Assembly (NCBI GenBank): GCA_014905635.1
Contig: JABVCE010000014.1
Span: 248,001 to 312,000 of the forward strand
Reading direction: 5' to 3'
DNA from: Scenedesmus sp. PABB004
Lineage: Eukaryota
DNA: 64,000 nt
The notes beneath the pieces are model-generated. The model did no database searches. It saw nothing but the letters and a program-made list of their open reading frames with translations, and was not told where the DNA came from. Of this stretch, positions 4,419 through 36,800 are shown one piece after another (within the stretch, counting starts at the first letter, position 1; every line of letters begins with the position of its first letter). Both the position numbers and the translations under genes were made by a program.

Positions 4419-5260
4419 GCCGGCGGTGCTGTGCCGCCGTGGCACATCTACCAGCGCAGCGCAGCCCCGCATCCAGTTCCCCGCCCCCCGGCGTCCCCCC
4501 CGGCACCCGCACCAACGGGTGCAGCCGCCGGCCTCGCCCCACGCCGCGCCAGGGGCAGCCGCCGGCACAGCAGCAGCGGCAGCCGCCGCCAGCCGCCGCC
4601 GTCCAGCCGCGGCGCGCAGGCCGCCGCGGTCGCCGCCATGAAGACGGCACCACGATCAGCATCGCGAGGTGCCGCTGGGCAAGCACGTTGTCGCGGTGTG
4701 GCCGCCAGGTGCGGGTGGCGGGCGCATGCCGCCCGATCGCGAGCCGCCCCGGCCCAGCGCAGCGCCGCCCGGTGCAGCGCGGCGGCGACCGGCCGCACTG
4801 GTGGCCCGGGCACCTGTCGCGCCCGCTGTCGGCAACGCAGCGGCCACCCCGGCGAGCGCGCCGGGATGGCGGCGCCATCACGCTCCGGGCCCCGAGCCCG
4901 TCCGGCGCGCCCGCGGCCCCGCGCCGCGCCGGCAGCGGCGCCCCGGCCCCACCACCGCGCCCGCCCCGGCCCCGCCGCCTGCCGCGCCGCGCCTGACCCC
5001 CTCCGGACGCTTCCGCCGCCGCCGCCGCCCCAGGCCGCCGCCGCCATGATGTGAAGCCATCGAGGATGGCTCCTCTCCTCCCCTCCTCCTGCCGAGCCCC
5101 TGACCCGATGCCATCAACACCACAGCCGCCATGACCCACACCCACGCGCCGCCGGCCAAGGTGAGCGACACGCCGGCGGCAGCCGCCGGCTGCAGCCTGC
5201 CGGGGTGCGTTCGTGTCGTGCGTGCTGTTGCCGCGCCCGCACCGCCAGCGCGCGCACCGC

Positions 5261-5354
5261 CGTGGGACGTGACGATTGTTTTTGTCGCCCCAGTCCTATT
5301 TGGCCCACAGCCAGGGCGCAAACAATGAGGATTGACACCATGTCTGATCCCACG
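5261..5354 (+). ncRNA. Box C/D snoRNA, U31/snR67-like (LSU rRNA Gm in GGCUGGGGCG)
   Basis: Terminal stem CGTGGGA/TCCCACG, C box GTGACGA 5269, D box CTGA 5344; antisense CGCCCCAGT 5286-5294. Confidence 0.75.
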
Positions 5355-5431
5355 CCGCGTGCGCGCGCCCGGCCTCGCGGGCCGGCTTTTCATCTTGTGT
5401 TTTTTCCTGCCTGCGCGCGCGCGTGCGCCGC

Positions 5432-5519
5432 CGCGTCCCTGATGACAATCCTTATCCCAGCTCACTCTGAGCTACTGCATTGAGGAAAAACAAAGTTTCA
5501 CGTTCATGTCTGAGACGCG
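5432..5519 (+). ncRNA. Box C/D snoRNA, snR71/U29-like (LSU Am in GUGAGCUGGG)
   Basis: Stem CGCGTC/GACGCG, C box CTGATGA 5439, D' CTGA 5467, D CTGA 5510. CCCAGCTCAC pairs with LSU GUGAGCUGGG and the +5 rule hits the A (yeast Am2946 equivalent). TCACGTTC pairs with the adjacent GAACGUGA. Confidence 0.85.
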
Positions 5520-5590
5520 TGCTGCGCCGCGCGCCGCGCGCGCGTGTGCTGCTGCTGCGTGTGGCGTGCGCGTGCTGCGCTGGCTGGCTG

Positions 5591-5700
5591 GCGGCAAGGG
5601 GATGACGAGAATTTTCCCCGGATGATCGACGCTGATTCGAAGCACTCTGTTGTTGCGGTGTCAACAGCCGCAACCAAGCCAGACAACCTGACCCTTCCGC
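5591..5700 (+). ncRNA. Box C/D snoRNA, target unresolved
   Basis: Stem GCGG.AAGGG/CCCTTCCGC, C box ATGACGA 5602, D box CTGA 5688, internal hairpin TTGCGG..CCGCAA; AT-richer than its flanks. Confidence 0.65.
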
Positions 5701-5773
5701 CGCCGCCGCGCGCGCTGCTCTGCTCTGCGCGCGTGTCGTGTGTGCCTCTGCCGTGGTGGTGTTGTTGCGGCCG

Positions 5774-5866
5774 CGTGGTGAGAGGTGACGACTTACCCCT
5801 TTTGGTCCGTGTTTCGTAGCCAGGCACGCACTGGTGACGAGAGAAAGGCTCGCCGATCTCACCACG
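5774..5866 (+). ncRNA. Box C/D snoRNA, U18-like
   Basis: 10-bp stem CGTGGTGAGA/TCTCACCACG, C box GTGACGA, D box CCGA. TTGGTCCGTGTTTC is complementary to LSU GAAACACGGACCAA, the U18 target. Confidence 0.85.
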
Positions 5867-5939
5867 CCGCGCTTGTGCTGTTGCTGTGCTGTTGTGCTGC
5901 ATGCTGTGTGCTGTGTGCTGCCGTGTCGCGCGCGCGCGG

Positions 5940-6036
5940 CGCTGCTGCGGGGATGACAAACCGGATTTCGGACTAGAGTATCCGAGGCGCGCCGCGCCCC
6001 TGACGATACTCTCCCTTGGCTGTCTGAGCACAGCGC
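5940..6036 (+). ncRNA. Dual-guide box C/D snoRNA (U52/snR78-like plus U53-like; plant snoR37-type)
   Basis: C box GGGATGA 5950, D' CCGA, D CTGA 6024. TCGGACTAGAGT pairs with LSU ACUCUAGUCCGA; CCCTTGGCTGT pairs with LSU ACAGCCAAGGG. Confidence 0.85.
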
Positions 6037-6124
6037 CCGCGTGCTGTGCCGCGCGTGCCGCCGTCGTCTGCCTGCGCTGCGCGCGCACCACCACACCACA
6101 CCACCGCACACCCGCATCGCACAA

Positions 6125-6299
6125 CGCTTCTATATCAGTTGGTCCCGCGGCCGCGCGGTGCCGCGGGGCCCGTTCCCAGAAGCGAGATCGATGAGGCCGC
6201 CGCGGTTTTGGAAGAGCTGCGTGTCGGTCGTTGCTCCCGGGCCCCGCTATCCTGGCTGGCGCGCGCGACGCCCCTCCGGGACGATGGGCCCGGACATCC
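6125..6299 (+). ncRNA. Box H/ACA snoRNA, snR37-like (LSU Psi in GGGAACG-U-GAGCUG)
   Basis: Hairpin CGCTTCT/AGAAGCG with pocket strands CAGTT and CGTTCCC flanking the target U; AGA/H-like box 14 nt downstream. Second hairpin CCGGGCCC/GGGCCCGG is followed by ACA at 6294. Confidence 0.75.
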
Positions 6300-6513
6300 C
6301 CCCTCGCCGGCCGGCGCCCTGCCTGCGCGGGCCCGCGCCGCCGCTCACGCGCGCCGCCGCCGCCCGGCACGCGCCGCAGGCCGACCGTCGCCACCGCCAG
6401 TCCATAAGGGACGGCCCCGAGGGCGCCGCCTCCGAGGTGAGCGCGCGGGCTCGCAGCGCAGCGCTGCGCCGCGCCGCCGCGCCGCGCGCACGCTACCACG
6501 ACGGTCGATGCGG

Positions 6514-6627
6514 GGCCTGCGTCCGTGCCCTTGACGTCAACAATACGGGTAGCCACACCAAACGGGGCGCGTTTCAGTGCTGGCAGCGCGCGCGGTGCTG
6601 CCAGCATGTATAGTCGCCCCGACACCC
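6514..6627 (+). ncRNA. Box H/ACA snoRNA; predicted target SSU rRNA UUAUAC-U-GUGAAAC
   Basis: H box ACACCA 6555-6560. 3' hairpin CGGGGCG/CGCCCCG with upper stem TGCTGGCAGC/GCTGCCAGCA and pocket GTTTCA / GTATAG; ACA at 6622, 14 nt from the pocket. Confidence 0.75.
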
Positions 6628-6909
6628 CCGCCGCCGGGCTGGGCTCACCCGACGCCCCCCGCCGGCCCCGTGCCGCCGCCGCGCTCACCCGCCCGCCGCG
6701 CCGCCGCCGCTGCCGCCGCTGCCCAGGCGTCAAGGGCAGCCTGACGCCTGGCCGAGCTCCAGCCCGCGCGCTCAGCAGGTGAGCACGCCGGGCGACCGCG
6801 CGGGTGGTTGGTGCGTGGCTTTGCGTGGTCGAGCGTCTGCGTGCGCGCTGCGCGGGCGCGGCGCCCACGCCGCGGCGCCCCCGCCGCGGCGGCTCCCTGC
6901 ACGGCCGGC

Positions 6910-6997
6910 TGCGCTGTGACGACACCTTAGAGGCTGTTTATGATCACCCGCTGATTTCAACCTCTAAACAAAACGACTTCTCTTTCCACTGAGCGCA
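6910..6997 (+). ncRNA. Dual-guide box C/D snoRNA (LSU GAACAGCCUCUA, U95-like; SSU 3' GGAAGGAGAAGUCGU)
   Basis: Stem TGCGC/GCGCA, C box GTGACGA 6916, D' ATGA, D CTGA 6989; antisense TAGAGGCTGTT and ACGACTTCTCTTTCC. Confidence 0.8.
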
Positions 6998-7070
6998 CCC
7001 CGGCCGTGCACCTGCGCCCCCCTTGTGTGCGTGCGTGTGTGCGTGCGTGCGCGTGCGTGCGTGTGTGAGC

Positions 7071-7830
7071 GAGCACCGTGACGACGCCCCGCTGCACCGG
7101 GGGTTTCCTGCCCCCGCCTGCTGACGCGTGTCGGACGCCGCAGCGCCCGAGTGCTCCTCCTTGCTGTGTGCGCGCGTGTGCGCTGATGAGACTCGCTGCG
7201 CTGGGGGTTTCCTGCCCCCGCCGACCGGCCTGTGCCGGACGCTGCAGCCTCTGAGCACACCCCTGCCGCCGTTGTGTGCGTGCGTGCGTGGCGCCTGCGT
7301 TGATGAGCCTCGCTGCCCTGGGGGTTTCCTGCCCCCAACGGCCGACGCTTGTCGGACGCCGCAGCTGCTGAGCAGCGCCCGCCTGCCGCGCGTGTGTGCT
7401 GTGCCGCCTGCCGTGACGACGCCCGCTGCGCCGGGGGGGTTCCTGCCCCCCGCGTCCGGCCCCGTGCCGGAGCCAGCAGCATCTGAGCATCCCTGCCCCG
7501 CTTGTGTTGTGCGTGGCGCCTGCGTTGATGAGCCTCGCTGCCCTGGGGGTTTCCTGCCCCCATCGGCCGACGCTTGTCGGACGCTGCAGCTGCTGAGCAG
7601 CGCCCGCCTGCCGCGCGTGTGTGCTGTGCCGCCTGCCGTGACGACGCCCGCTGCGCCGGGGGGTTTCCTGCCCCCCGCGGCCGGCCCCGTGCTGGAGCCA
7701 GCAGCATCTGAGCATCCCTGCCCGCTTTCTCTGTGCTGTGTGTGCCGCCTGCCGTGACGACGCCCGCTGCGCCGGGGGGTTTCCTGCCCCCCGCGTCCGG
7801 CCCCGTGCCGGAGCCAGCAGCATCTGAGCA
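7071..7830 (+). ncRNA. Tandem array of 7 paralogous orphan box C/D RNAs (~75-85 nt each)
   Basis: C boxes at 7078, 7183, 7300, 7413, 7525, 7638, 7754. D boxes at 7147, 7251, 7368, 7483, 7593, 7708, 7824. Each has a terminal stem, a GCTGC/GCAGC helix, a GGGG-TTTCCTG-CCCC hairpin and a second variable hairpin; copies are separated by GT-rich spacers. Confidence 0.8.
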
Positions 7831-7997
7831 TCGCCCTCCCCTGCCCCGCCGTGCGTGACGCGCCCGCCTCCGCCCGTCTGCCCGCAGGCACGCCCCGAGA
7901 CCCCTCGCCCAGCCCGGCAGTCAGCAAAGGAGGCCGACCGCGCCCACCCCACACCCTCCAACGGTGAGCGACTGCGGCGCTGCCGGCTGGGCTTGCT

Positions 7998-7998
<1 letters not shown>

Positions 7999-8051
<53 letters not shown>
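7999..8051. repeat. (TG)n microsatellite
   Basis: About 25 TG units inside the host-gene intron. Confidence 0.95.
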
Positions 8052-8054
<3 letters not shown>

Positions 8055-8083
8055 CGTCGGTGCTGCGCGGTTGGTTTTGCGGC

Positions 8084-8294
8084 GGACGGTGACGACACTG
8101 CGCTGCGCCTGGGGGTTTCCTGCCCCCACCGGCAGCGCTCGCTCGCTGATGCAGCAGCCGCCGAGTCCTCGCCCCAACCTGCGTGCGCGTGTCTGTGCGT
8201 GCGTGTGCCGCTGGCGATGACGACGCCTGCCTCAACCGGAGGTTTCCTGCCTCCGCCGTCTGACCAACCGCGACGACGCCCGGGGCGCTGAGCC
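8084..8294 (+). ncRNA. Two further, more diverged copies of the orphan C/D RNA family
   Basis: C box GTGACGA 8089 with D CCGA 8161; C box ATGACGA 8217 with D CTGA 8288. The last copy has the compensatory stem CGGAGG-TTTCCTG-CCTCCG. Confidence 0.75.
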
Positions 8295-8417
8295 GTGCCC
8301 TGTCCCTCCGCTGCGCGTGTGCGTGTGCGTGTGGTTGCTCGAGGCGTCGCGCGCAGCCCGGCGCGGCGCGGCGCGGCGCGGCGCCGTCCCGCGCCGCCGC
8401 GCCGCCGCGCCGCCGGC

Positions 8418-8689
8418 GCACATCTGTGATGCAGCTCGCCACTGTTGCACAGCGCCGCAGTGGAGCCGGGTCCCAGCCCCGAGCTGGGAGAACCTACTCG
8501 GTGCAAGCTGCGGGCGGCCCCGCCACCGGGGCGGCGGCCCTGCTCTCGCAGGCCGCCCGCCCCGGCGGCCTCATGCCCGCCGGCGCGCGCCGCGCGCCCC
8601 GCGCGCGCGGCGCCGCCGGCCCCGGATGCAGCGGCGGGTGCCCGCCGGCGTGTGCTCACGGCGCGGCTCGGCCGCAGTCTGAGATGTGC
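8418..8689 (+). ncRNA. Long (~270 nt) orphan box C/D RNA candidate
   Basis: 7-bp terminal stem GCACATC/GATGTGC abutting C-like GTGATGC (8426) and D box CTGA (8679); internal hairpins such as TCCCAGC/GCTGGGA. Confidence 0.5.
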
Positions 8690-8861
8690 TCCGCCGCCGC
8701 CGCGCCGCCGCTGCTCCTGCAGCGCGCGGCGGGCGCGTGCTCGCGCGTGCTCGCGCGCGCGCCCGTGCGTGCTTGGTGTTGAGGCCAGCCAGCCAGCGCT
8801 GTGCTGTGCTTTGGTGTTGAGGCCAGCCAGCCAGCCAGCCAGCCCGTGCTGTGCGTGTGCA

Positions 8862-9001
8862 TTGGTGTTGCCGGTGATGAAGATTCCAACTTGGGCTTTT
8901 CTCAGAAAACATTCGCAGGGCCCGTCTAGAGCTTTCGCCTTTCGCCGGGCTTGAGAGCTGTTGCGGTGGATACCTTCCTTGGATGTCTGAGGCAACACCA
9001 A
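8862..9001 (+). ncRNA. U14: U14 snoRNA
   Basis: 11-bp stem TTGGTGTTGCC/GGCAACACCAA, C box GTGATGA 8874, domain A ACATTCGCAG, domain B CCTTCCTTGGATGT directly before D box CTGA 8987. Confidence 0.95.
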
Positions 9002-9100
9002 CGCGCGCTGCTGCGTGTGTGGCTCTGCGCGCGTGTGCCGTGTCCTGTGTCGTCGCGTGCGCGCGCGCGCGCGCGCGTGTGGGGCCTCTGCCGCGGCGTC

Positions 9101-9201
9101 GCTGGGGGATGAGAGCACAGTTGGACAATCACGACGGTCTTCTTAGCGGCCTTCCCACAAGGGGGCCGGGCAGACAATCCACTGACTCACTGGCTGACAG
9201 C
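9101..9201 (+). ncRNA. Box C/D snoRNA, U35/snR73-like
   Basis: Stem GCTG/CAGC, C box GGGATGA, D box CTGA 9194; TCACGACGGTCT is complementary to LSU AGACCGUCGUGA. Confidence 0.8.
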
Positions 9202-9969
9202 TCCTGCTGCGGCAGCAGGCCCCCCGCGGCGCGCGCCCCGCGCCGCCCGCGCGTCGCCGCGCCGACGCCGCTGCGCCCCCCGCCGCCCCGCCGCCGCCCC
9301 GCTCCGCCCGCAGGCGCTGGGCTGTGCTGCCGCTCGGCGACTGCTGCGCCGCCGCCGGGGGACTCCATCGACGACGTCCGGCGGGCGCGCCGGGCCGGCA
9401 AAGCGGCGCCGCCCTGGCCGGCAGCGTGCGCAGCGCGCGCGCTCGGGCGTGTAACTCACCCGGCGCTGCGTGCCCGCGCTGGTGCCTCTCTCCGCGACGG
9501 TGCCAGCCCAGGCAGCGTCGCCCCCGCAGCCGGCCCACACTCGCCCAGCCCGGCCAGCACACCGGCCGGCGGGTGACGCACGCCGACCCCGCCGCCGCCG
9601 CTGCAGGCGCCGTGAGGCCGGGCTCAGGCGACGGGCGATGCCAGCGCAATATCCATCACTCGCCGGCCTGGCGCCAGGCTCGCGGGGGGCTGGGACGAGC
9701 GGGGCGGGCGGCAGCCAGGGCCGGGCGCATCATCGGCGCGCCGTCCTCCGCCCACCCCGCCGCCGGCGCGCCACCCCATCACTCCTTCGCCACTCCGCCA
9801 GCTCGCGGCCCGTTAGCGGGAGAGCCCAGACCAAGCTCTCCCAGCGCTGCCAGGCCGCGCGCTGGCCCACCACCCGCCTCTCTCCCCCGCTGCCTCTCGC
9901 CCGCCGCCGCGGACCGCCAGTCCCGGCCACCCGGCCCCGCGCGCTCCCTCACCGCCATCGCGCGCAGCG

Positions 9970-11524
9970 ATGGCGCCCGCGTGCGAGCAGCCGGAGGCCT
10001 TTGCCTTCAAGCAGGCGCCGCGCCGCAAGGCGCCCTGCTGCTGGGCCTTCTTCGTGCTCACAGCGCTCCTGGGACTCACCGTGGTCGTCTGCACCGCCGT
10101 CTGGTGAGCGCGCGCGCGGGGGTGCCCAAACGACCTGCCGCCCGCGGCGTCAAGCGCCGCCCGGGCGCCCCGGCTCGCTGGCGATCGTGCATTGCGTGGA
10201 TCGTCACGGAATGAGCGCCCGCCGCGGCGCGCGGGCACGGGGGCCGGTGTCGAGCGCGGGCAGCGCTGCTGCCAGGCCCGCCGCGCCGCGGCCGCGGCGC
10301 CATCGCGGCCCGGCGGGCGCCCGGGGTGCATAGCTCCATCAGCGCACGCCTCTGGGCTGCCCCGCGGCCGCAGCGGCGCCGGCGCGCCGCGCCGCGCCGC
10401 CTGACCGCGCCGCCGCCCGCGCGCGCGCGGGGCACGCCGCAGGCACCACTTCAGCAGCCTCGCGCTGACTGACACCAAGATCATCGCCGCCCTGATCAGC
10501 ATCCCGCCGCCCAAGGCCTTCACGCGCTACCTGCCCGCGCTGCTCGGCGCGAGCGTCGGCCTCGCCGTGCTGTCCGCGCTCGCGGTGTGGGGCACGTTTG
10601 CGTGGCGCGCGCTGCGCGTGCGCGCCGCGTCGTCGTCGCCGGGCGGCGCCGGCCGCGCGGCGCCGTTCCTCGTCGCGTCGGGCGCGACGGTCGGGCTGCT
10701 GTACCTCGTGCTCGTGTGGTTTGTCGTCATGTTTGCCATCAGCCTGCTCTGGGCAGGCGGCGGCCTCATCGCGAGCAAAGCGACCATGGACGGCGCCAAC
10801 ACGCTGCTCGTCGTCGACGAGACGCTGCCAAAGCTCATCAAGACCGCGATGGGCATCGACCCAGCCAAGACGGCGAGCGGCGGCGGCGCGGCGCGGCGGC
10901 GGCGCGCGCGGGCGCAGGGCGACCGGCGGGCGGCGGCGGCGCAGCGGCGGCGGGCGGCGGGAGGCGCGCGGGCGGGCCCGGCGCGGCGCGGCCCGCCGCC
11001 TGACGCCCGCCGCGCCCCGCCTCACGCCCGCCGCGCCCCGCGCCGCCGCGCGCGACGCGGCGCCGCAGGGCTACCTGGTGCACGTCGCGGGGCGGGACGT
11101 CAACATCGGGCGCTCCTCGTGCAGCCTCTTCTGCTTCACGCTCGCGCGCGCGATGCTGGCCGACACGATCGACTGCACCTGCGACCGCGACCTCGCGGCG
11201 CGCCTCATGCCGCCCGGCGGCGCGACGCACGACATCGCCGACGCGGCCGTGTGCGCGGCGACGCCGGTGATGTGCAGCATCAACGCCTACGCGTTTGCGC
11301 TGTACAAGCGCCACATGGTCCCCGCGGTCGGCGCGGTCGCGGTCGCGCTGCTCGCGCTCGCGGCGCTGCTCGCGCTCGCGGCCGGCACGCACGCGCGCGC
11401 GCGCGCCGAGGCGCGCGCGGGCGAGATGAGCCGCTGCGGCAGCGCCGACGCGCAGCTGCGCCTGGACGGCGGCAGCAGCGCCGACGGCGGCAGCCCTCGC
11501 AAGGGCGGCGCGGCGCCGGCGTAA
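9970..11524 (+). CDS. Multi-pass membrane protein of unknown function (3 exons)
   Basis: MAPACEQPEAF..CCWAFFVLTALLGLTVVVC; several hydrophobic helices; Cys-rich loop (CSLFC, DCTCD); TAA at 11522. Confidence 0.7.
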
Positions 11525-16442: not shown

Positions 16443-19400
16443 TCACACGCGGCCCGCCGCCGCGCCGGCGCCGCCCAGCTCGCCCGCGCCGGCGGCGTCG
16501 CCGCCGCCCCCAGCCGCGCGCGCCGCGCCGCCGCCGCGCCCGTACTGCGCGCGCAGCAGCAGGCTGTTGCTGACGACGGCGACCGACGAAAAGGCCATCA
16601 TGCCGCCCGCGGCGCTCGGGTTGAGCGCGAGGCCGAGGCTCGGCAGCAGCGCGCCCGCTGCGAGCGGGATGCCGACCACGTTGTACACGAGCGCCCAGGC
16701 CAGGTTCTGCCGGATTTTGGCCAGCGTCGCCTGGCCGAGGCGCACGCAGTCGACGACCTGGCCCAGCCGGTCGCCCATGAGCACGACCGACGCGGCCTCG
16801 CCTGCGCGGGCGGGCGCACGCGCACGGCAGCGGCGGCGGCGTTGCAGAGGCGCGCACGAGAGCGGCCGCCACGCCCCCGGCGCGTCCCCGGCGCGCCGAG
16901 CGCCGCGGACGGCGGCCCCGCGCCGCGCGCCGCGCGCCGCGCGCCGCGCGCCCCACCCGCCGCGTCGAGGCCGCCCGAGAGCGCGATGCCGACGTCCGCC
17001 GCCGCGAGCGCGGGCGCGTCGTTCACGCCGTCGCCGACCATGGCGAGCCGCATGCCCTCCGCCTGCAGGCGCGTGATGACGGCGAGTTTGTCCTGCGGGC
17101 TGTTGGACCCAAACGCGTCGCCCGGCGCGATGCCGGCCGCCGCCGCGACGGCCTGCACCGTCGCGTCGTCGTCGCCTGAGAGCAGGAACACGCGCAGGCC
17201 CATGCCCTGCAGCGCCGCGACCGTGCGCGCCGCGTCGGGGCGCAGCGCGTCGCGGAAGGAGAGGCCGCCCAGCAGGCGCGGCCCGACGGCGACCAAGACC
17301 TGCGTGCCCCGCGCGCCGCCGGGCTCGCCGGGCGGCGCCAGCTGCGCCGCGGCGGCGCGCTGCGCCTCGGGGAGCTGGCCCAGCACCCACTCCGGCCGGC
17401 CCACGAGCACGGGCTGCCCGCCGATCACCGCGGCGACGCCTGCGGCGCGGCGCGGCGCAACGGCGGGCGGGCGGCTGGTCAGCGGGGTGCCGCCCACACG
17501 GCCACGCGGCGGGCCACACCCCGGGCGCTCGCCGCCCGCCGCCCACGCCGCGCACGCCGCCGCGGCGCGCACCTGAGCCCGGCTCGGTGCGCGCCTCGTT
17601 CGCCGCCGGGAGCTTGAGCCCGCGCGCCGCCGCCTCGGCCGCGAGCGCGGCGGCGAGCGGGTGCCGCGTGTTGGCCTCGACCGCTGCCGCGACCCGCAGC
17701 AGCAGCGCCTCGCCGTCGCCGCCGGCGCCGGCACCGCCGCCGCCGCCGCCGTCCAGCGCGGCGGCGACGGCGTCCGCCGCGCCGGGCGCGAGCGCGAGGC
17801 CCGCGAGGCGGAGCCGGCCCTCGGTGAGCGTGCCGGTCTTGTCGAAGACCACGCCCGTGATGCCCGCGACGCGCTCGAGCACGTCGCCGCCGCGCATGAG
17901 CAGGCCGCGCGTCGCGCCGAGGCTGGAGCCCACGAGCACCGCCGTCGGCGTCGCGAGCCCCAGCGCGCAGGGGCAGGCGACGACGAGCACGTCGACCGCG
18001 AGTCGAATAGACAGCAGCAGCGCCGAGGGGCTGCCCGACGCCGTGAGCGCGGCGGGGAAGAGCTGCGTGCCTGCGCCGCGGGAGCGCCGCGCGGACGGCG
18101 GCGCGACCGAGCCCGTCGCACGGGCGCGCGGCGCGCGCGCGGGCGCAGCGCGGGCAGCGGCCGAGAGCGGCTGTGCGCGCGCGCGCGTGCTCACCGAGGA
18201 GCTGCCAGAAGCCAAACGTCGCCGCGCTGGCAGCCATCACGCCGTAGCAGAACTTGCCCGCGACGGCGTCGGCCACGCGCTGCACGGGCGCCTCGCGCGC
18301 CTGCGCGGCCGCGACCAGCCGCCCGATGCCTGGCCGGCACGCGCGGCGCCGGCGCGGGGCAGGCCGCGGTTCGGGCAGGCAGGCGCGGGCGTGGGCGGGC
18401 GAACCGCCGGCGGCGGCGGCGGCGCAGGGTGCGCCAGGGCGCGGTGCGCGGCGGCGCACCCGCGAGCGTGCTCTCCGCGCCCGTGGCGGTGGCGCGGATG
18501 GTGAGCGGCCCCTCATACACCACAGTACCGCCCGCGACACCCGCGCCGGCGCGCTTGGCCACGAGCACGCTCTCGCCTGCGCGCCAGGCAGGCGTGCGTT
18601 CGTGTGAGTGCGCGCGTGTGTGCGTGCAGGTGTGTGCGGCGGCGGCGGCAGCACGACGCCCGGACAGCTGCCGGCTGAGCCGGCGGCGGCACTGTGGCGC
18701 CCGCCGGGCCCCTCGGCCCCGCCAGCCGGGGCGCGCACCCGTGAGCATGGCCTCGTCCACCGCCGCCACGCCGTCAAGCACCTCACCGTCGCACGGCACG
18801 CGCTCGCCTGCAGCGGCGGCGACGGCGGCGGCGCGGCGCGGGCGTCGGCCGCGGGCCCGCCGCGGCGCCGCCGCCCGAGCCGGCCGGCACCGTCGCTGCG
18901 GGCGGCAGCCCCCCCGCAGCTGCGGGCGCCGCACCCGGCAGCACGCGCAGGATGTCGCCCGGCCGCACGCTGCTCGTGGGCACCAGCACCAGCTCGACGC
19001 CCTCCGCCACGCCGCCGCCGCCGGCCGCGCCCGCGGCCGCTGCCGCGGGCTTGGCGCCGCTCGGGTCCAGCACCAGCCGGCTGCTGGCGGGGATGAGCTT
19101 GGCCAGGGCCTTGAGGTCCGACGCGGCGCGCACCTGCGCCCAGCGCCAGGGCGGCGGCGGCGGCGGCGCGTGTCGCGCCGCTCCGGCCCGGGCCCGTCGC
19201 CGCGACTGCGCCCCGGTGCGTGCGCCGCCCCCGCGGCGCGTGGCGCGCACCTTGGCCCGCGCCTCGAGCGCGCGGCCGAGCAGCACAAAGGCGAGCAGCA
19301 TGACAGGCTCCTCGAGGAAGGAGGAGTCAAAGCCCAGCCCCGGCAGCGCCGCGGCGGCGGCGCCGACGGCAAAGCTCGTGGTGCTGCCGATCGCTACGAG

Positions 19401-20694
19401 GCTGTTCATGTTTGGCGCGCCGCCCCAGAGCGAGCGCAGGCCGTCGACGAGCAGCCTGGCCGGCGGGGGGGGGGGGGGGGGGCGGCGCGGCGGCGCGGGC
19501 GTGAGCGCGGATGCGGGGGGCTGTGGGCTCGCCGGCGCGGCGCGCGGCGGCCGCCGCTCACGTGCGCCCCGGGCCGAGCAGCGCGAACGCGCCGAGCGCG
19601 CCGCTGACGGCGGGCTGGCCCATGAGGGCCATGAAGGGTGTGTGGGCAAACTGGTGGTAGCCGAGCGCGTGCAGCAGGTGCCCCAGGTGGTGGCTGCAGC
19701 AGAGCAGCACGAGGGCCCAGGCCAGCCCGAGGTTGACCAGGCTCGCGCGCGCCTCCTCGGCGCGCCGCGCGTCGGCCTCGTCCGACGCGAGCGCGCCGTC
19801 GGCCTCGGGCGCGCGCAGCTTCGCGGGGAAGCCCTGCCGGCGGGGACCGGGGGGCAGGGGGGTCGGCCCGTGGCACGCCGGGGCCGTCTGCCGGCCGCAG
19901 GCACGCCGCTGCGGCAGCGCCGCCGCCGCCGCCGCACCTTTTTTGTGAGCATCTCGGCGGCCGCCGACACGGTGCCCGCCTCGCCCGCGCTGCGGTCGCG
20001 GCGGCGGCAGCGGCGGAGACGGCCATGTGGTCGCAGCCCTCGGCCGTTGCGCCGCCGCCCGCCCCCCGCAGCTGCCGCCGCCGCCCCGGCTCGCGCCGCT
20101 GCGTACCGCACGGTCACGGCCGCCGTCTCAGTGAGCAGGTTGACCGCCGCGCCCTGCACGCCCGGGTGCTTCGCCAGCATCGACTTGACCGCCGCCGAGC
20201 AGCCGCCGCACTTCATGCCGCCCACGTCCAGCACGACCGTCTCAACCGCGGCGGGGGCCTCCACGTCGGACGGCGGCGCCGCGAGCGCTGCGGCGGCGCG
20301 GAGCGGCACCGGCGGGCGGCGTCGTCGCGCGCGCCCGAGCGCCGCCGCTGCCCGCGGTGCGCCGACCCCGGCGCCCGCCGCTCGTGCGCCCACCTGCACC
20401 CGCCTCCACCGCGGGCTCCGCGGACGCCGCGCGCGCGGCGAATGAGGCCCGCTGCGGCCCGCGCAGGGCGCCGTGTGCGAGCGGCAGCAGCGGCGCCGCC
20501 GCGCCGGCCGGCGCGGCGCCGCTGGCGCCCGGCGCGACGCCTCGAGCTGCGGGCCATGCGCAGCTGCCGCTCCGGGTGGCCGCCCGCCGGCCGTGGGCGC
20601 GCAGGAGCCGCGGCAGCAGCAGCGCGCCCGGGCGCAGCGACATCGCGGGCGCGGCGGGGGCGCGCAGGGCGTGCGCCCGCGCCGGCGCGCTCAT
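16443..20694 (-). CDS. PAA1: Chloroplast Cu-transporting P1B-type ATPase (PAA1/HMA6-like)
   Basis: Transit-like N-terminus; HMA motif GMKCGGC; PNMNSLV, FLEEPVML, TGES, CPCALGLATP, DKTGTLT, HP, GDGVNDAP, YN, MMAFSS. Confidence 0.93.
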
Positions 20695-30722: not shown

Positions 30723-32189
30723 TCAGGCGCCGGCGCCCCGCGCGGCGAGCGCGGCGGCCACGTCGTCCCGCACGACCGCCCACATCTTCTCCGCCAGGCG
30801 CGGCGCCGCCGCGAGCGCGACGTTGGCCTCGACGTGCTCCTGCGCCTGCGGGCGCGCGCGCGCGCACGCGCGCTGTGGGCGCCCCGTCCGGCGCGGCGGC
30901 GGGCGAGCGCGGCACGGCCGAGCGCGGCGCGGCGCGCGCGCACCTTTTGGCCCAGCAGCACGCTCGTCACGCCCGGCACGCTCCGCACAAACTGCACCAG
31001 CTTGCCCGCGGTGCTGCGCACGTCGCGCATGCCCAGCAGGTGGTCGAGCGGGCCCACCAGGCCCTGCAGCAGCTGCGCCTGCGTGCGGAGCGCGCGCGCG
31101 CGCCCCGGCAGCGGGCGTTGGCGGGCGCCAACGCGCGCCCGGCGCGCCCGCGGCCGCGGGCGCGGCAGCGGTGCCGCGCTGCGCGCCTCGCACCTCCATG
31201 AGCGGCCCCGACGCAAACACGAGGAGGCCCAGCCGCCGCGCCGCGTCGATGGCGGTCATGTTGTCATAGATGATCGGCGGCGGGGGCGGCGGCGGCGGCG
31301 GCGGCGGCCGCGGCGGCGCCATCGCCGCGAGCGCGGCCGCCTCCTGCGCCGCCTCCTCCTCGCCGTCCAGCAGCGGCGGCGGCGGCGGCGGTGACGGCGG
31401 GTTGGCGGCCGCGGCGGCGGCGGCAGCGGCCGCCGCCGCCGCCTCGGTCGCCGCGTGGTTGACCATGCGCTGCCAGGGCTGGGTGAAGGCCTCTGTCATC
31501 TTGGCGTTGATCGGCAGCTGCACGGCCATGAAGCCGTGGTGCTCGCCGCCCACCTCCTTGGCCAGGTTCACCACCTCCTCCAGGCTCACGTGCTGCGCAG
31601 CGCGCCGGCGGCGCGCGAGCGACGCGGCAGCGGCGGTGAGCGGTGAGCGGCGTGCGGCCGCAGCGCGCCGCAGAGGCGGGCAGCGCGCCGCCGCCGCTGC
31701 CGCGCACCAGCGGGCCGCCGGGCGGCTGCCGGAAGCAGTCCCACGTGGCCATGCCGTAGCCCATGAGCTTGCCCTGCGTGCACGCGCCGCACCCGGCCGG
31801 CGTCGGCCCCGCACCCGCACGCGCGCGCCCCCGCCCGCGCCCGCGCCCGCCCCCGCGCCGCGCGCCCGTGGCCACGCGCCCGCGATGGCCGCGCCGCCGC
31901 GCGCCGACGCTCGTGTGCCCGCGGCGGCGCGGCGCACCTCCTTGCGCAGCGCCTCGAGCTCCGCGAACGCGCCGCGCAGGAGCTGCATGAAGCCGTCGCG
32001 CCCGCGCGCGAGCAGGTGCACCTCCGCCGCGTTGTGCAGGTAGACCAGGTCGACCATCTCCAGCCGCAGCGCCGCGAGGCTCGACGCGACGCTGCCGCGG
32101 ATGCACGCGCGCGTGAGGCAGTGCGCGCCGCCCGCGAGGTCGCCCGCCGACGCGGCGCCCTGCGACAGCAGCTGCTGCTTCAGGGCTGC

Positions 32190-32236
<47 letters not shown>

Positions 32237-32541
32237 GCCGGTGAGCGCCGGGCGTCTGCCGGGACGAGCTGCTGCCGCCAGCGGCGGCTGGCACCGCGCC
32301 CGCCGCACCCGGGCTGAGGAAGCCGGCCTTTGTCGAAATGAAGAGCGCGTCACGCGTGACCTCGGCGCGCTCGTGCGGGAACATGTCGCCTTTGCTGCCG
32401 ACGAGCAACAGCGACAGCGCGCGCCCGATCGCCGCCTCGGCGCGGCCCTCGCGGTAGTTGGGAGCTGCGTTGCGCGCGGCGGCGGCGCGGCAACGGGTGA
32501 GCCGCGCCGCGCGCGATGCGCGCACGCCCTTGCTGCTGCTG

Positions 32542-32572
<31 letters not shown>

Positions 32573-33445
32573 GACTGCTGCGACCGCGCCGCCGCTGCTG
32601 GGCTGCTCCGCTGGGCCTCGGCCGCCCGGGGGCTCGCCCACCTGTGTCAATGACATTCCAGCCCCGCGTGGCGCTGTAAAGCAGCGCCGACAGCACCTGC
32701 TCGTCCGTGGTGTCATCCGCCGCGCCCAGGTAGGTCCCCAGGCCGAGGCTGCTCAGCTGCAGCCGCTGGTCTGCGGCGGCGGCGGCGGCGCGGGCCCGCC
32801 GGCGGCGGCCGGTCGGCGCGGGCCCGCCACCGCTGGCGGCGGCGGCGGCGCGCCGCCGCGGTGCTGCCCGGGCGGAGGCGGCGCATGACAGCTCACTGGG
32901 GCTGGTGGGGTCGGCCGGCCGCGCGCGCCCAAACTCGGCGGTGTTGAAGTGGTTCACGCCGACCGAGCCGCCGAGCGCGCCCGCGTAGATCGTGGTCCCG
33001 CTCTCGCTCGCGTAGCCCTTCCACACGAACTTGTCCTGCGGCGGCGGCGGCGGCGGCGGCGGCGCGCGGCGCCTGCTGCTCAGCAGCGCGGCGCGCGGCG
33101 GGCACGGCCGCCGCAGCAGCAGCAGCAGCGGGCGCGCCGCGGCGCCAACCGCCGCCGCACCACCAGCGCGCCCGCGGAGACGCAGGGCTCCAGGCCGCAG
33201 GAGACGGGGCATGACCGGCGCATGTTGTAGGGGTCGGTGAGGCAGCGGTTGAGGCTGGCGTCGCGCTCGCAGGTGTCCAGCTTGTCCGCGCAGTGGCCGT
33301 ACCCCCGCTCGCCCTCGCTGTAGCCGATGAACGCGCCGCTTCGATCGCTCTCCAGGCCGGCGGCGAGCCCAGCCGCGACCAGCAGCAGCAGCACCGCCAG
33401 GCGCGCCCCGGCGCCGCGGCCCGGGCCTTGGCGCGCAGCGCGCAT
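30723..33445 (-). CDS. Signal peptide + ShKT domain + aldo-keto reductase
   Basis: LAVLLLLVAAGLAAG; CADKLDTCERDASLNRCLTDPYNMRRSCPVSCGLEPC (ShKT pattern); LSSLGLGTYLG, NVIDT-APNY, ISTKAGF, DLVYLHN, VQLPIN. Confidence 0.85.
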
Positions 33446-33812
33446 GCTGCTGCCGCCGCCCTCGCGCGCCGCTGCGGGCCCGGCTCACGCGCGACGGCCG
33501 ATCATGCAGGACCGACGGGAGCACCAGCTGGGCGCAGCTGGAGCCCTGCCACGCGCAGGGGGGCCGCGCAGGAGACCGACGCAGCGAGCGAGCTGCTCCC
33601 GGGCGCGGTTGCTGCGCGTGGCGGTGGTGTGGAGGCAGCCTCCGAATGTGTGGTGTCGAGTCGAACGGCTGGCTGGCGCAGCAGGCTGCGGTTTTGTTAG
33701 CGGTTGGGGCGCTGCGCGCCGCCGCCGCTGCTGTCCGCAGCGCCGCGCCGCACACGCCGCACAAGCCGTCCCCCCGAGATCCCGTCCTGGCGAACTTCCC
33801 GGGGCGCGTCAG

Positions 33813-36800
33813 ATGCAGCGCGGCACGGGGCCGCACGATGTGGGCGGCCTGGAGCTGGGTGCGGCCGCCCGCAGCAGCAGCGGCGCGGTGCCACGCGCGC
33901 GCTCATCAGCCGCCGCCGCACCGCGCGCAGGACCGGTCGACAAGCGCGACCGCCCCTGGATGCACTGGGAGCGGGAGGTCAACGCCATCGTCTGGTGCGC
34001 CGCCGCCGGGGCGCGCGCGACCCGCCGCTGCGCGCCGGCTGCGCACGCACCGCCGCACGCGCCGCCGCTGCACACCGCCGCTGCACGCCCCACACGCCGG
34101 CCGCGCCGCAGGCTGCTGGTTCAGAAGGGCCTCATGTCGCTGGACGAGCTGCGCCGCGGCACCGAGGCGCTGCCCGGCCACGCGGCGCTGATCTACTACG
34201 AGAAGTGGGCCGCCGCGGCGGCGGCGATCGCGGTCGAGCGCGGCACGATCACGGCGGCGGAGCTGGAGGGCCGCCTTGGGCAGGACCCCGCGACGCTCGA
34301 CGCCCGCGTGCGGTGCGCGCGTGTGCGCGCGCGTGTGCGGGGCGGCAGGGCGCGGCGCACGGCGCACGGCGCGGGGCGGCGGCGCAGGGCGCATGCAGCG
34401 CGCGGCACATGGCGCGGCGCGCGCGGCCTCTGCCGCCGGCAGCGCCGCCGAGCAGGCTGGCGCGCCGCCGCAGGTTTTCGGCGGGGGACTACGTGCGCGT
34501 GAGGCCCGAGGACGCGGCGGTGCGCTGGCGCCGGCCCCACCTTCGCACGCCCGGCTACGTCTTTGGCCTGGTCGGCCAGGTCGAGCGCCCCTGCCTCGGC
34601 GCGTTTGGGGACCCTGAGCTCAAGGCCTTCCGGGAGGACGGCCCGCGCCAGCCGCTGTACCGGTGCGGCGGCGGCGCCGGGGGCGGCGCGGGCCCAGATT
34701 GCAGCGGCGCGGCCGCGCGGCTTTTTCTTACAGCTCCGCTGCGCCTCACGCCGCCCCTTTTCGCCTCCGCCGCAGCGTACGCTTCCACCAGGGCGACGTG
34801 TGGGAGCTCTACGAGGGTGCGGCGCCGCGCGCGCGCTGCGAGGCGGGGGTTGGGGGTTCAAGGTTGAGGGTTAAGGGTTGTAGGAACGGGCTGGCGCCCC
34901 ACCGCACCCCGCCCCGCCCCGCCGGTCGGGGGCGGTGCAGGCGGGCCCGAGGACACGCTGGAGCTGGAGATCTATCAGCCCTGGCTGCAGCCGGCGACCG
35001 CAGAGGAGCTGGACGCGCAGCGCGGCGCCGCGGCGGCCGCGCGCGCGGCGCTGCGCGCCGGGGCGGCCGCGCACGGCCACGGCCACGAGCACCACGAGCA
35101 CCACGAGCACCACGAGCACCACGAGCACCACGAGCACCACGAGCACCACACACACGCCGCGCGCCACGGCCACGACGGCTTCGGGCACCGCGACGGCGCG
35201 CACCGCGGCGAGGCGGGCGTGCCGCGCGCGCACGTCGCGGGGGTCCACCTCCACTTGCCGCGGCGCGTGCCGGCCGCGCGGCAGCACCACGAGCAGCACG
35301 GCAGCGACGGCGGGCACCACAGCCACGGTGAGCACAGCGACGGCGGCCACCACGGCAGCCACCACAGCCACGGCGAGCACAGCCACGGCGACAGCCACCA
35401 CAGCCACGGCGAGCACAGCCACGGCGACAGCCACCACAGCCACGGCGCGCACAGCCACGGCGACGGCGACCACCATGTCCATGAGGCGCGCAGCAAGGTG
35501 ACGCCGGTCACGCACAGCGTGTTGCGGCCGCCACGTCGGCCACCCCCGCCCTGCAGGGCGGCCGCGCCGGCCGGGCGTGCGCCGCGCCGAGCCGCCGCGC
35601 GCCCCGCGCGCCGCGCAGGTGGAGGCGGACGCGGTGGCGCTGGAGGGCGAGGACGACGACGCCGCGGCGCCGCAGCGCCGCGTGGCCGAGGCGCTGAAGG
35701 CGCTGCTGCTGGCCAAGGGGGTGATCACCCGCGAGGTGGGGCGGCGACGGGGCGGCGGCGGCGTCGTCGTCGGCGGCGGCGGCGGCGATGGCGGCGGCGG
35801 CGGGGCTGCATGACCGGGGCCCACCACCGCTCAGCCTCGGCCGCCGTCGGCGCCGTCGCCGCCGCCGCAGGAGGTGCGGGCGGAGCTGGAGGCCATGGAC
35901 GCGCGCGGCGCGCGCGGCGAGGGCGCCCGCCTCGTCGCGCGGGCGTGGGTCGACCCCGCGTTCAAGGCCCGCCTCCTGCAGGCGCGGCGCTGGGGGGGGG
36001 GGGGGGCAGGCGGGCGGGCGGGCGCGGCGTCGGCCTGCGCAGCCCCGGGGGCGGCGCGGCACCGGGCCACATGGGCGAGAGGCCGAGCGCTGCGCCGCGC
36101 GTGGCGCCCGCCCGCCGCGCAGGACACGGCGGCGGCGGCGGCGGAGCTCGGCATCAGCACCTCCAACCTGGCGCCCAAGCCCGGCGCGCCGCTGCCACCG
36201 GCGCCGCCGGCGCCGGCGCCGGGCGAGGCGGCGCCGCGCAGCGGCACGGTGCTCACCGCCGTCGCCAACGAGTCGGGCGTCGTGCACAACCTGGTCGTGT
36301 GCACGCTGTGCAGGTGCGCGGCTGGCTGCTGGAGGGAGGCGTGCGCGGCTCCGCGGCCGCCAGGCGGGGGGCCCGCGCGCCCGACCGGCGGCGCGGCTGC
36401 GGCCGCCGCGGCCCCGACGACCCCGACGCGCGCGCACGCGCACGCGCCTGCCCGCCGGCCGGCGCCGCAGCTGCTACCCGATCTCCGTCCTGGGCATGTC
36501 TCCGCACTGGTACCGGAGCCGGGCCTACCGCGCGCGCGCCGTGCGGGACCCGCGGGGCTTGCTGGCCGAGTTCGGGCTGGTGTTGCCCCCCGGCACCGCG
36601 GTCCGCGTGCACGACTCGACCGCCGACCTGCGGTGCGGCGCCGCGGGGCCGCCGCCACGCGCGCGGCTCGGGGCCGCGCGGCGGCGGCAGCGGGGCGAGC
36701 GCGCCCGTCCGCGCTGGCCCTGCGCGGTGCGCGGGCGCGCAGCTCAGCTCAGCTCAGCTCAGCTCGGCTGAGTCCGGCGCGCCCGCCGCCGCGCCGCGCC

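Follow-up and report, generated by a model that had tools for sequence, protein, structure and literature searches.

In a 64,000-nucleotide stretch of the genome of Scenedesmus sp. PABB004 (contig JABVCE010000014.1 of assembly GCA_014905635.1, positions 248,001 to 312,000; hereafter the window), we found nine head-to-tail units of the box C/D small nucleolar RNA (snoRNA) type, all on the + strand, which occupy window positions 7071-8297 with a period of 104-117 bp. Judged from their sequence, these units (copies c1 to c9) quite probably constitute a real box C/D RNA family maintained by selection, and they could well be a lineage-specific family of intron-encoded snoRNAs that acts through a conserved hairpin loop, UUUCCUG, and not as canonical guides. 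An original prediction, made from the letters of this DNA alone, had placed nine units within 7071-8294, and all nine were found where it had placed them (Table 1).

Measured from terminal stem to terminal stem, the units are 85-89 nt long, a predicted size that fits the 70-120-nt range of box C/D snoRNAs, and they are separated by spacers of ~15-35 nt. Each follows the same order, with a 5′ stem strand, two spacer bases, the C box, a 61-65-nt interior, the D box and a 3′ stem strand. Searching the window for the 17-mer GGGGGTTTCCTGCCCCC with ≤3 mismatches gave nine matches, all within the array and all on the + strand, whereas 0.44 were expected from shuffles and none of 100 shuffles reached nine. 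Similarly, a covariance model built from the nine units and applied to the entire window without filters recovered them at 70-97 bits, with the next-best match at 15 bits (E 0.3). Some of the copies are nearly identical: c3 and c5 are 98% identical, c4, c6 and c7 are 97-98% identical, and the two-unit block c3-c4 (225 bp) is repeated at 98% as c5-c6. We therefore counted about six independent lineages (c1, c2, c3/5, c4/6/7, c8 and c9), which differ from one another by 22-42%. The most diverged unit is c9, with 58-60% identity to the other copies; its segment 8268-8289 repeats, at 19 of 22 bases, the C-box segment seen in units of the c4 type, so that c9 is a chimera produced by internal or unequal duplication and owes its C′-like and D′-like words to this event. 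The G+C content of the nine units (71-78%) equals the background (74-81% across the window).

The C box, the D box, the terminal stem and a setting among other snoRNAs, which are four of the features of the box C/D class, were all found. Every unit carries a C box of the form TGAYGA (TGATGA in three, TGACGA in six). The D box reads CTGA in seven of the nine, and CCGA, one base off, in c1 and c8; the earlier claim of a C box and a D box in each unit thus held throughout for the C box, and for the D box consensus in seven copies only. Directly outside the boxes, 3-7 pairs form the terminal stem, in which 80.6% of cells pair across the six lineages and four of six pairs show changes on both sides. 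TGACGA is also the C box of canonical neighbours within window positions 5265-9200 (the U31b-, Z103-, SNORD18- and Z152-like genes), and UGACGA in canonical snoRNAs of this organism may reflect G+C drift at a tolerated fifth position.

The interior of the units, where guides normally lie, is predicted to be folded. The RNAalifold consensus of the nine units comprised four helices, namely the terminal stem, a closing stem (GCUGC/GCAGC), hairpin 1, with five or six G-C pairs around UUUCCUG, and hairpin 2. In a model-fitted alignment of the nine copies, 89.4% of cells paired, compared with 79.0 ± 1.3 in shuffles (reached by 0 of 500), and both-side changes occurred in 10 of 22 pairs compared with 4.1 in shuffles; sliding the partners by 1-3 columns left 0-4 such pairs. 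A plain MAFFT alignment of the six lineages gave much the same values, with 90.2% of cells pairing versus 78.5 ± 2.1 in shuffles (0/500), and both-side changes in 10/22 pairs versus 4.3 (0/500) and 0-3 in slid controls. These compensatory changes were spread over the four helices. Pairing in hairpin 1 reached 100% of cells, with an outer (sixth) pair that is C-G, U-A, G-C or U-G and a third pair that is G-C except in c9, where A-U takes its place; in hairpin 2 one pair switches from A-U to G-C and the sequence of c8 is wholly different. The individual pairings named in the original prediction were recovered: GCUGC after box C pairs with GCAGC before box D in c1-c8, as the alignment agrees; the second hairpin varies yet remains paired (CCGAC/GTCGG, CCGGC/GCCGG and CAGCG/CGCTG); and c9 shows the compensatory change GGAGG/CCTCC. 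When the interior was folded alone, with boxes and terminal stem set aside as in a kink-turn ribonucleoprotein (RNP), a Y-shape was obtained in seven of the nine copies (not c6 or c8), that of c9 having a different closing stem, GCCUC/GGGGC.

Conservation was then compared by region as mean pairwise identity among the six lineages. The loop of hairpin 1 ranked first (0.95), followed by the C box (0.91), the D box (0.87), the two closing stem strands (0.87 and 0.73) and the hairpin 1 stems (0.82), whereas the linkers and the loop of hairpin 2 reached only 0.23-0.58, and identity was 0.23 at the two positions that precede box D. Six of the seven loop columns are invariant, compared with 4 of 34 other unpaired columns outside the boxes, a difference with a binomial probability of ~2e-5 (a rough value that ignores relatedness). 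The loop also had a mean unpaired probability of 0.68-0.73, versus 0.21-0.40 in the rest of the unit, and it retains four U within DNA of 74-78% G+C. Taken together, a U-rich loop that is held, helices kept by paired changes and linkers that drift argue for purifying selection on RNA, unlike what a young repeat would show. "Nearly invariant", as the loop had been described, was apt: hairpin 1 shows TTTCCTG in eight of nine copies and GTTCCTG in c4. The c4 variant is a G at 7439, where a 506-nt contig of run X1, covering 7003-7501 with five substitutions, has the consensus T. This contig belongs to a fragmentary, low-depth set from two freshwater-metagenome DNA runs of one study (none over 7769-8221), and at its depth of 3.1 the T could reflect either a strain difference or a mistake in the read sequence. 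Outside the units, TTTCCTG occurs a tenth time at 5403-5409, within TTTTTTCCTGCC (5397-5412, + strand) in a spacer of predicted intron 1, so that the window holds ten such words, all on the + strand of one host gene, versus ~1 expected.

An alternative with real points in its favour, though an unlikely one in our estimation, is that the units are ordinary 2′-O-methylation guides whose lineage-specific target sites lie in G+C-rich spacers or expansion segments of the organism's own rRNA, with hairpins that open on the target or are incidental in RNA so rich in G+C. Canonical guides are found in the same host gene and on the same strand, C′-like words occur in c8 and c9, and an internal CTGA lies at the place of a D′ box in c1 and c9; the same position reads CCGA in c3 and c5, CCGG in c2, c4, c6 and c7, and CAGC in c8. 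However, the sequence adjoining box D and this putative D′ differs among copies (identity 0.23-0.58), which leaves the copies without a common guide at the canonical place, and the conserved 17-mer stops 5 bases before D′, so that the fifth, methylation-selecting position is variable. Furthermore, the paired changes preserve intramolecular pairs, which a shared target would not demand, and in the four copies where the GA of D′ has become GG the partner in hairpin 2 has changed as well and Watson-Crick pairing is kept, which favours a plain hairpin over a C′/D′ motif. A C′/D′ kink-loop formed by hairpin 2 was rejected for the same loss of the D′ GA in 4/9 copies with Watson-Crick pairing retained. 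As for c9, its would-be guide is the 19/22-base copy of a C-box segment described above.

Complementarity to ribosomal RNA (rRNA) was evaluated against proxy ribosomal DNA (rDNA), consisting of ten eukaryotic loci (67.6 kb) that occur as contaminants in prokaryote assemblies and were fetched by a conserved motif of the 18S 3′ end; only three of the ten extend far enough to include a whole large-subunit (LSU) gene, and three look angiosperm-like by the start of their internal transcribed spacer 1. This 26-base eukaryotic motif marked at least 51 contigs of prokaryote assemblies (L005-L055) as carrying eukaryotic rDNA, i.e. as contaminants. The longest complements of the nine units to the proxy loci were 10-12 nt, a length that 44-200 of 200 shuffles also attained; they are G+C-rich and either confined to one locus or common only to the angiosperm-like loci. 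Those of c2 and c9, 12 nt long and lying in a variable part of angiosperm-like 25S (L045, L038), would suit a guide, the one in c9 ending 2 nt before box D, but 44 and 45 of 200 shuffles did as well. A 9-mer complement of c1 occurred at chance level. Among the canonical neighbours used as controls, the SNORD18-like gene had a 14-nt complement in eight of ten loci (1/200 shuffles), the U14-like gene a 14-nt complement at one 18S place in three of ten (5/200), the unit at 5432 a 13-nt complement in three of ten (6/200) and the Z157-like gene a 12-nt complement in three of ten, while the complement of the U31b-like gene was reached by 9/200 shuffles. That no rRNA antisense element could be recognised in the units, as first reported, is thus borne out in that their complementarity to proxy rDNA does not exceed that of shuffles, and the family is an orphan with respect to the conserved rRNA cores of other eukaryotes. 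Rfam gave no match to the units at E ≤ 10, either over 6 kb (4500-10500) or, with the filters relaxed, over 1.25 kb (7060-8310), and none at the gathering threshold; the units therefore match no Rfam family, SNORD115 and SNORD116 included.

The loop itself was treated in the same way. Its complement, CAGGAAA, is absent from eight of the ten proxy loci; in L051 it stands at the start of the LSU, a place that in the angiosperm-like L045 reads GCGGAGGAAAAG, and a 10-mer loop match was found only in L051 among the ten. Within the window, every occurrence of CAGGAAA and GGCAGGAAACC was on the reverse strand of the units themselves, apart from one spacer at 5403-5409. The idea of a contact between CCUGC and the GCAG/G splice context found no support, for it rests on a 5-mer of which the loop contains only CCUG, and CAGGAAA, the complement of the entire loop, does not form a splice-site word. 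Three further candidates were dropped by eye: mimicry of the U1 5′ end by the loop (one base off, with a complement lacking GU); likeness to 18S 3′-end sequence in the sense orientation (7 nt only); and T-arm or anticodon-loop mimicry.

The reading that we favour is therefore set out as a model. The nine units would be tandem duplicates of one intron-encoded box C/D snoRNA gene family, transcribed from one host gene together with U14 and canonical guides of rRNA modification, and released from two introns. Each RNA would join the core C/D proteins in a kink-turn RNP that caps both of its ends, and an interior Y, made of the closing stem GCUGC/GCAGC, the UUUCCUG hairpin and a hairpin of free sequence, would replace the free guide, so that no 2′-O-methylation would be guided in the canonical register. 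The exposed loop, perhaps extended into its stem to ~11 nt (GGUUUCCUGCC), would contact RNA or protein. Tentatively, the loop, and no guided methylation, would be what the family works by. As partner we would favour a fast-evolving, G+C-rich part of the pre-rRNA (a spacer or an expansion segment), with the units serving as helpers of folding or processing, because they would be carried on one transcript with U14 and guides for rRNA, which is an argument from context; a target in a variable rRNA region would also explain why neither RNA nor target is seen elsewhere. A bolder version, which we regard as somewhat unlikely, is that of a guide-less class of box C/D RNP, in which the kink-turn scaffold only stabilises and localises a small Y-shaped RNA and UUUCCUG is the working part (a kissing or seed contact with a lineage-specific RNA site, or a protein-binding site), with nine copies for dosage, as in a SNORD116-like array arisen independently of mammals, in this case in an organism of high G+C and plant or green-algal type.

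Several observations weigh against this loop-based reading. The covariation comes entirely from paralogues of one array, about six of them independent and perhaps linked by gene conversion, and the structure was derived from the same sequences that were used to examine the pairing. Since the closing stem is invariant in c1-c8, the evidence for it comes from c9 only. When whole units were folded to minimum energy, none of the nine copies gave the consensus, which is 9-26 kcal/mol worse, and single-sequence fold z-scores range from -0.07 to -3.4, with c4, c6 and c9 near 0. In c4, c6 and c7 the terminal stem is weak, with only three clean pairs, and two D boxes read CCGA. The word "orphan" refers to the conserved rRNA cores of other eukaryotes alone, and by the same crude shuffle test four of eight canonical neighbours (Z103, Z157, Z152 and the unit at 9100) are non-significant too. 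Finally, no homologue was found outside the locus: a pattern scan of the metagenome contigs (D box, hairpin with a free third pair, C box) gave four loci, all unrelated by eye, with no array, no GCTGC/GCAGC and a bacterial-looking context.

The weak terminal stems and the two CCGA boxes could also suggest decaying or neutral duplicates of a former snoRNA, in an array shaped by unequal crossing-over whose apparent conservation stems from recent duplication and gene conversion. The 225-bp block duplicated at 98%, the 97-98% likeness of c4, c6 and c7 and a G+C content equal to background agree with this. Nevertheless we consider it improbable, because the older lineages have diverged by 25-42% overall yet retain boxes, loop and pairings while their linkers drift, compensatory changes occur in four helices, and the U-rich loop is kept against strong G+C pressure. 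Even less likely, in our judgement, is a protein decoy, or an RNA that caps the ends of longer intron-derived RNAs as in snoRNA-ended long noncoding RNAs (sno-lncRNAs), with the UUUCCUG/pyrimidine element as a site for an RNA-binding protein. Several snoRNA units do lie in one intron, one element is displayed nine times in an accessible loop, and the tenth TTTCCTG is in a spacer of the same gene; but nothing direct speaks for this explanation, the spacers measure merely ~15-35 nt, and plant and algal clusters are normally cut into single snoRNAs. A dispersed mobile element (miniature inverted-repeat transposable element, MITE) or satellite with chance box-like words has a tandem period of 104-117 bp to recommend it and is very improbable, given that nine of nine copies are confined to one snoRNA cluster on one strand with no other in the 64-kb window, that boxes, terminal stems and size fit snoRNAs, and that the four loci of the metagenome-contig scan were unrelated by eye.

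Clustered multi-copy orphan box C/D snoRNAs are already known, and it is the structural variant that may be new here. The Arabidopsis orphans SnoR4a/b, snoR28, SnoR6, SnoR43 and SnoR106 resemble the array as box C/D RNAs with several variants that have no rRNA or small nuclear RNA (snRNA) target and are clustered with canonical guides, according to the parts of PMC8053127 and PMC2875012 considered here. Among the orphans listed there, SnoR4a/b lie in a cluster holding U31 (HID2), a snoRNA common to that cluster and the present host gene (PMC8053127, in part), and snoR28 has six variants within a table of 13 orphans (PMC2875012, in part). By these partial descriptions only, the array differs in having nine copies in one gene and in being intronic, not organised as independent clusters; a fully paired interior with an invariant loop, present in the array, is unreported for the Arabidopsis orphans in the literature searched (PMC8053127 and PMC2875012, in part). 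For a green alga, the portion of PMC7671301 consulted describes 17 orphan snoRNAs of Ostreococcus tauri, species- or class-specific and some of them abundant, so that orphan C/D snoRNAs occur there as in the array; they include Ot-CDsno131, a single-copy C/D RNA of 259 nt with "an unusual structure". In the supplement of that paper, as far as it was covered, TTTCCTG appears once, in an H/ACA RNA, and no tandem family is described (PMC7671301). The statement that no such RNAs had been described in algae accordingly goes too far, considering the orphans published for Ostreococcus tauri (PMC7671301) and, for Arabidopsis, the clustered multi-variant ones (PMC2875012, PMC8053127), each source in part. 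Three features were not found, in a search that covered the PMC8053127 supplement in part and did not extend to the Chlamydomonas snoRNA survey, where a similar family might be described: a nine-copy family, a covarying three-helix fold in place of guides, and a single invariant loop; among papers pairing the loop word with snoRNAs, judged by titles and the starts of abstracts, no C/D hairpin was found either.

In mammals, SNORD115 and SNORD116 form tandem arrays of orphan C/D snoRNAs in introns of a host transcript, and the present array, also tandem, would by its splice words be intronic as well. SNORD115 and SNORD116 have one unit per intron. The array has several units per predicted intron and shares its host with canonical rRNA guides, and its conserved element is a hairpin loop and not a linear antisense stretch next to box D. 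The resemblance to SNORD115/116 first remarked on therefore survives as an analogy of layout only, there being no Rfam match. For SNORD115 (HBII-52), an mRNA is the supposed target of a conserved element (PMC2875012, in part). A further likeness is that to U3, U8, U13, domain A of U14 and U22, in which a C/D scaffold pairs with pre-rRNA outside the methylation register; plant U13, for instance, pairs with the 18S 3′ end (PMC2875012, in part), and a U14-like gene lies within the array's own host gene. Those RNAs have long linear complementarity to conserved rRNA and are widely conserved, whereas the array shows none in proxy rDNA and no relative was found.

Although many orphan box C/D snoRNAs exist, their mode of action is mostly obscure. 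In this family the internal signal is unusually clean: six diverged paralogues agree that selection sees the boxes, three helices and one seven-base loop, while the usual guide places either drift freely or are taken up by a stem. Should the RNAs be made, they would offer a compact, testable model of a C/D RNP working without a linear guide, and would indicate that such arrays arise outside mammals too. If the target lies in a spacer or an expansion segment, the family would illustrate how, where genomic G+C content is extreme, snoRNA repertoires keep pace with those parts of rRNA that evolve fast.

The array lies in what is probably a non-coding snoRNA host gene. By splice words only, GTGAGC donors and YGCAG/G acceptors split the region into short exons and introns, and the predicted exons, read by eye, contain only a short open frame. 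The canonical neighbours (Table 1) were also recovered by a box-and-stem scan, together with a long C/D-like RNA; their best-matching Rfam families are plant families, which, like the freshwater-metagenome origin of the two DNA runs, would fit a green alga, and their G+C content is 43-58%, versus 71-78% in the nine units.

Table 1. Window coordinates of the nine units, the predicted introns and the neighbouring snoRNA-like genes.
Feature	Position	Strand	Details
Copy 1 (c1)	7071-7156	+	Terminal stem GAGCAC/GTGCTC; C box GTGACGA 7078-7084; hairpin 1 7099-7115; D box CCGA 7147-7150
Copy 2 (c2)	7176-7260	+	Terminal stem GTGTGC/GCACAC; C box CTGATGA 7183-7189; hairpin 1 7203-7219; D box CTGA 7251-7254
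Copy 3 (c3)	7293-7377	+	C box TTGATGA 7300-7306; hairpin 1 7320-7336; D box CTGA 7368-7371
Copy 4 (c4)	7406-7492	+	C box GTGACGA 7413-7419; hairpin 1 7434-7450, loop GTTCCTG; D box CTGA 7483-7486; 3 clean terminal pairs
Copy 5 (c5)	7518-7602	+	98% duplicate of c3; C box 7525-7531; hairpin 1 7545-7561; D box 7593-7596
Copy 6 (c6)	7631-7717	+	97% duplicate of c4; C box 7638-7644; hairpin 1 7659-7675; D box 7708-7711
Copy 7 (c7)	7747-7833	+	97-98% duplicate of c4, c6; C box 7754-7760; hairpin 1 7775-7791; D box 7824-7827
Copy 8 (c8)	8082-8170	+	Terminal stem GGAC/GTCC; C box GTGACGA 8089-8095; hairpin 1 8111-8127; second hairpin CAGCG/CGCTG; D box CCGA 8161-8164
Copy 9 (c9)	8210-8297	+	C box ATGACGA 8217-8223; hairpin 1 GGAGG-TTTCCTG-CCTCC 8238-8254; internal CTGA; D box CTGA 8288-8291
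Canonical C/D snoRNAs of predicted intron 1	5265-6035	+	
U31b-like	5265-5350	+	Rfam gathering score
snoR69Y-like	5432-5521	+	Weak Rfam match below gathering score
Z103-like	5596-5696	+	Rfam match below gathering score
SNORD18-like	5780-5860	+	Weak Rfam match below gathering score
Z157-like	5940-6035	+	Rfam match below gathering score
Predicted intron 3	6779-7887	+	GTGAGC...CCGCAG, from splice-site words; holds Z152-like snoRNA and c1-c7
Z152-like	6910-6997	+	Rfam match below gathering score
Predicted intron 4	7964-9313	+	Predicted; holds (TG)n run, c8-c9, 271-nt C/D-like RNA, U14-like gene and a further C/D unit
U14-like	8869-8994	+	Rfam 61.7 bits versus gathering 64

The long C/D-like RNA (8420-8690, + strand, ~271 nt) has an 8-bp terminal stem, GCACATCT/AGATGTGC, a C box GTGATGC, a D box TCTGA and 81% G+C; it measures 257 nt from C box to D box (~8426-8682) and gave no Rfam match at E ≤ 10. 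In size alone it recalls the 259-nt orphan Ot-CDsno131 of Ostreococcus tauri. The further C/D unit, located after U14 at ~9100-9200 (+ strand), contains TCACGACGGTCT, which is complementary over 11-12 nt to an LSU region of proxy loci L031 and L035. Two lower-G+C islands on the + strand in predicted introns 1 and 2 (6130-6300 and 6490-6640) are rich in hairpins and have ACA-like ends; they may be candidate H/ACA snoRNAs, with no Rfam match at E ≤ 10. TG/TGCG-rich spacers precede almost every snoRNA of the cluster, the canonical ones included (7017-7073, 7163-7182, 7271-7290, 7993-8065, 8177-8215 and 8310-8329), with a pure (TG)n run at ~7999-8051, and could be processing signals or merely microsatellite.

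Stop-free frames of ≥250 amino acids number 138 in the 64 kb, so that open frames alone mean nothing here, and a 732-amino-acid minus-strand frame running across the array had no Pfam match. Elsewhere in the window, Pfam searches with 15 long frames identified, on the minus strand, a histone deacetylase domain at 1050-2864 (E 1.6e-22), a heavy-metal-associated domain at 18783-20690 (E 3.4e-9) and an aldo/keto reductase domain at 30723-33902 (E 1.9e-5, just above the cut-off).

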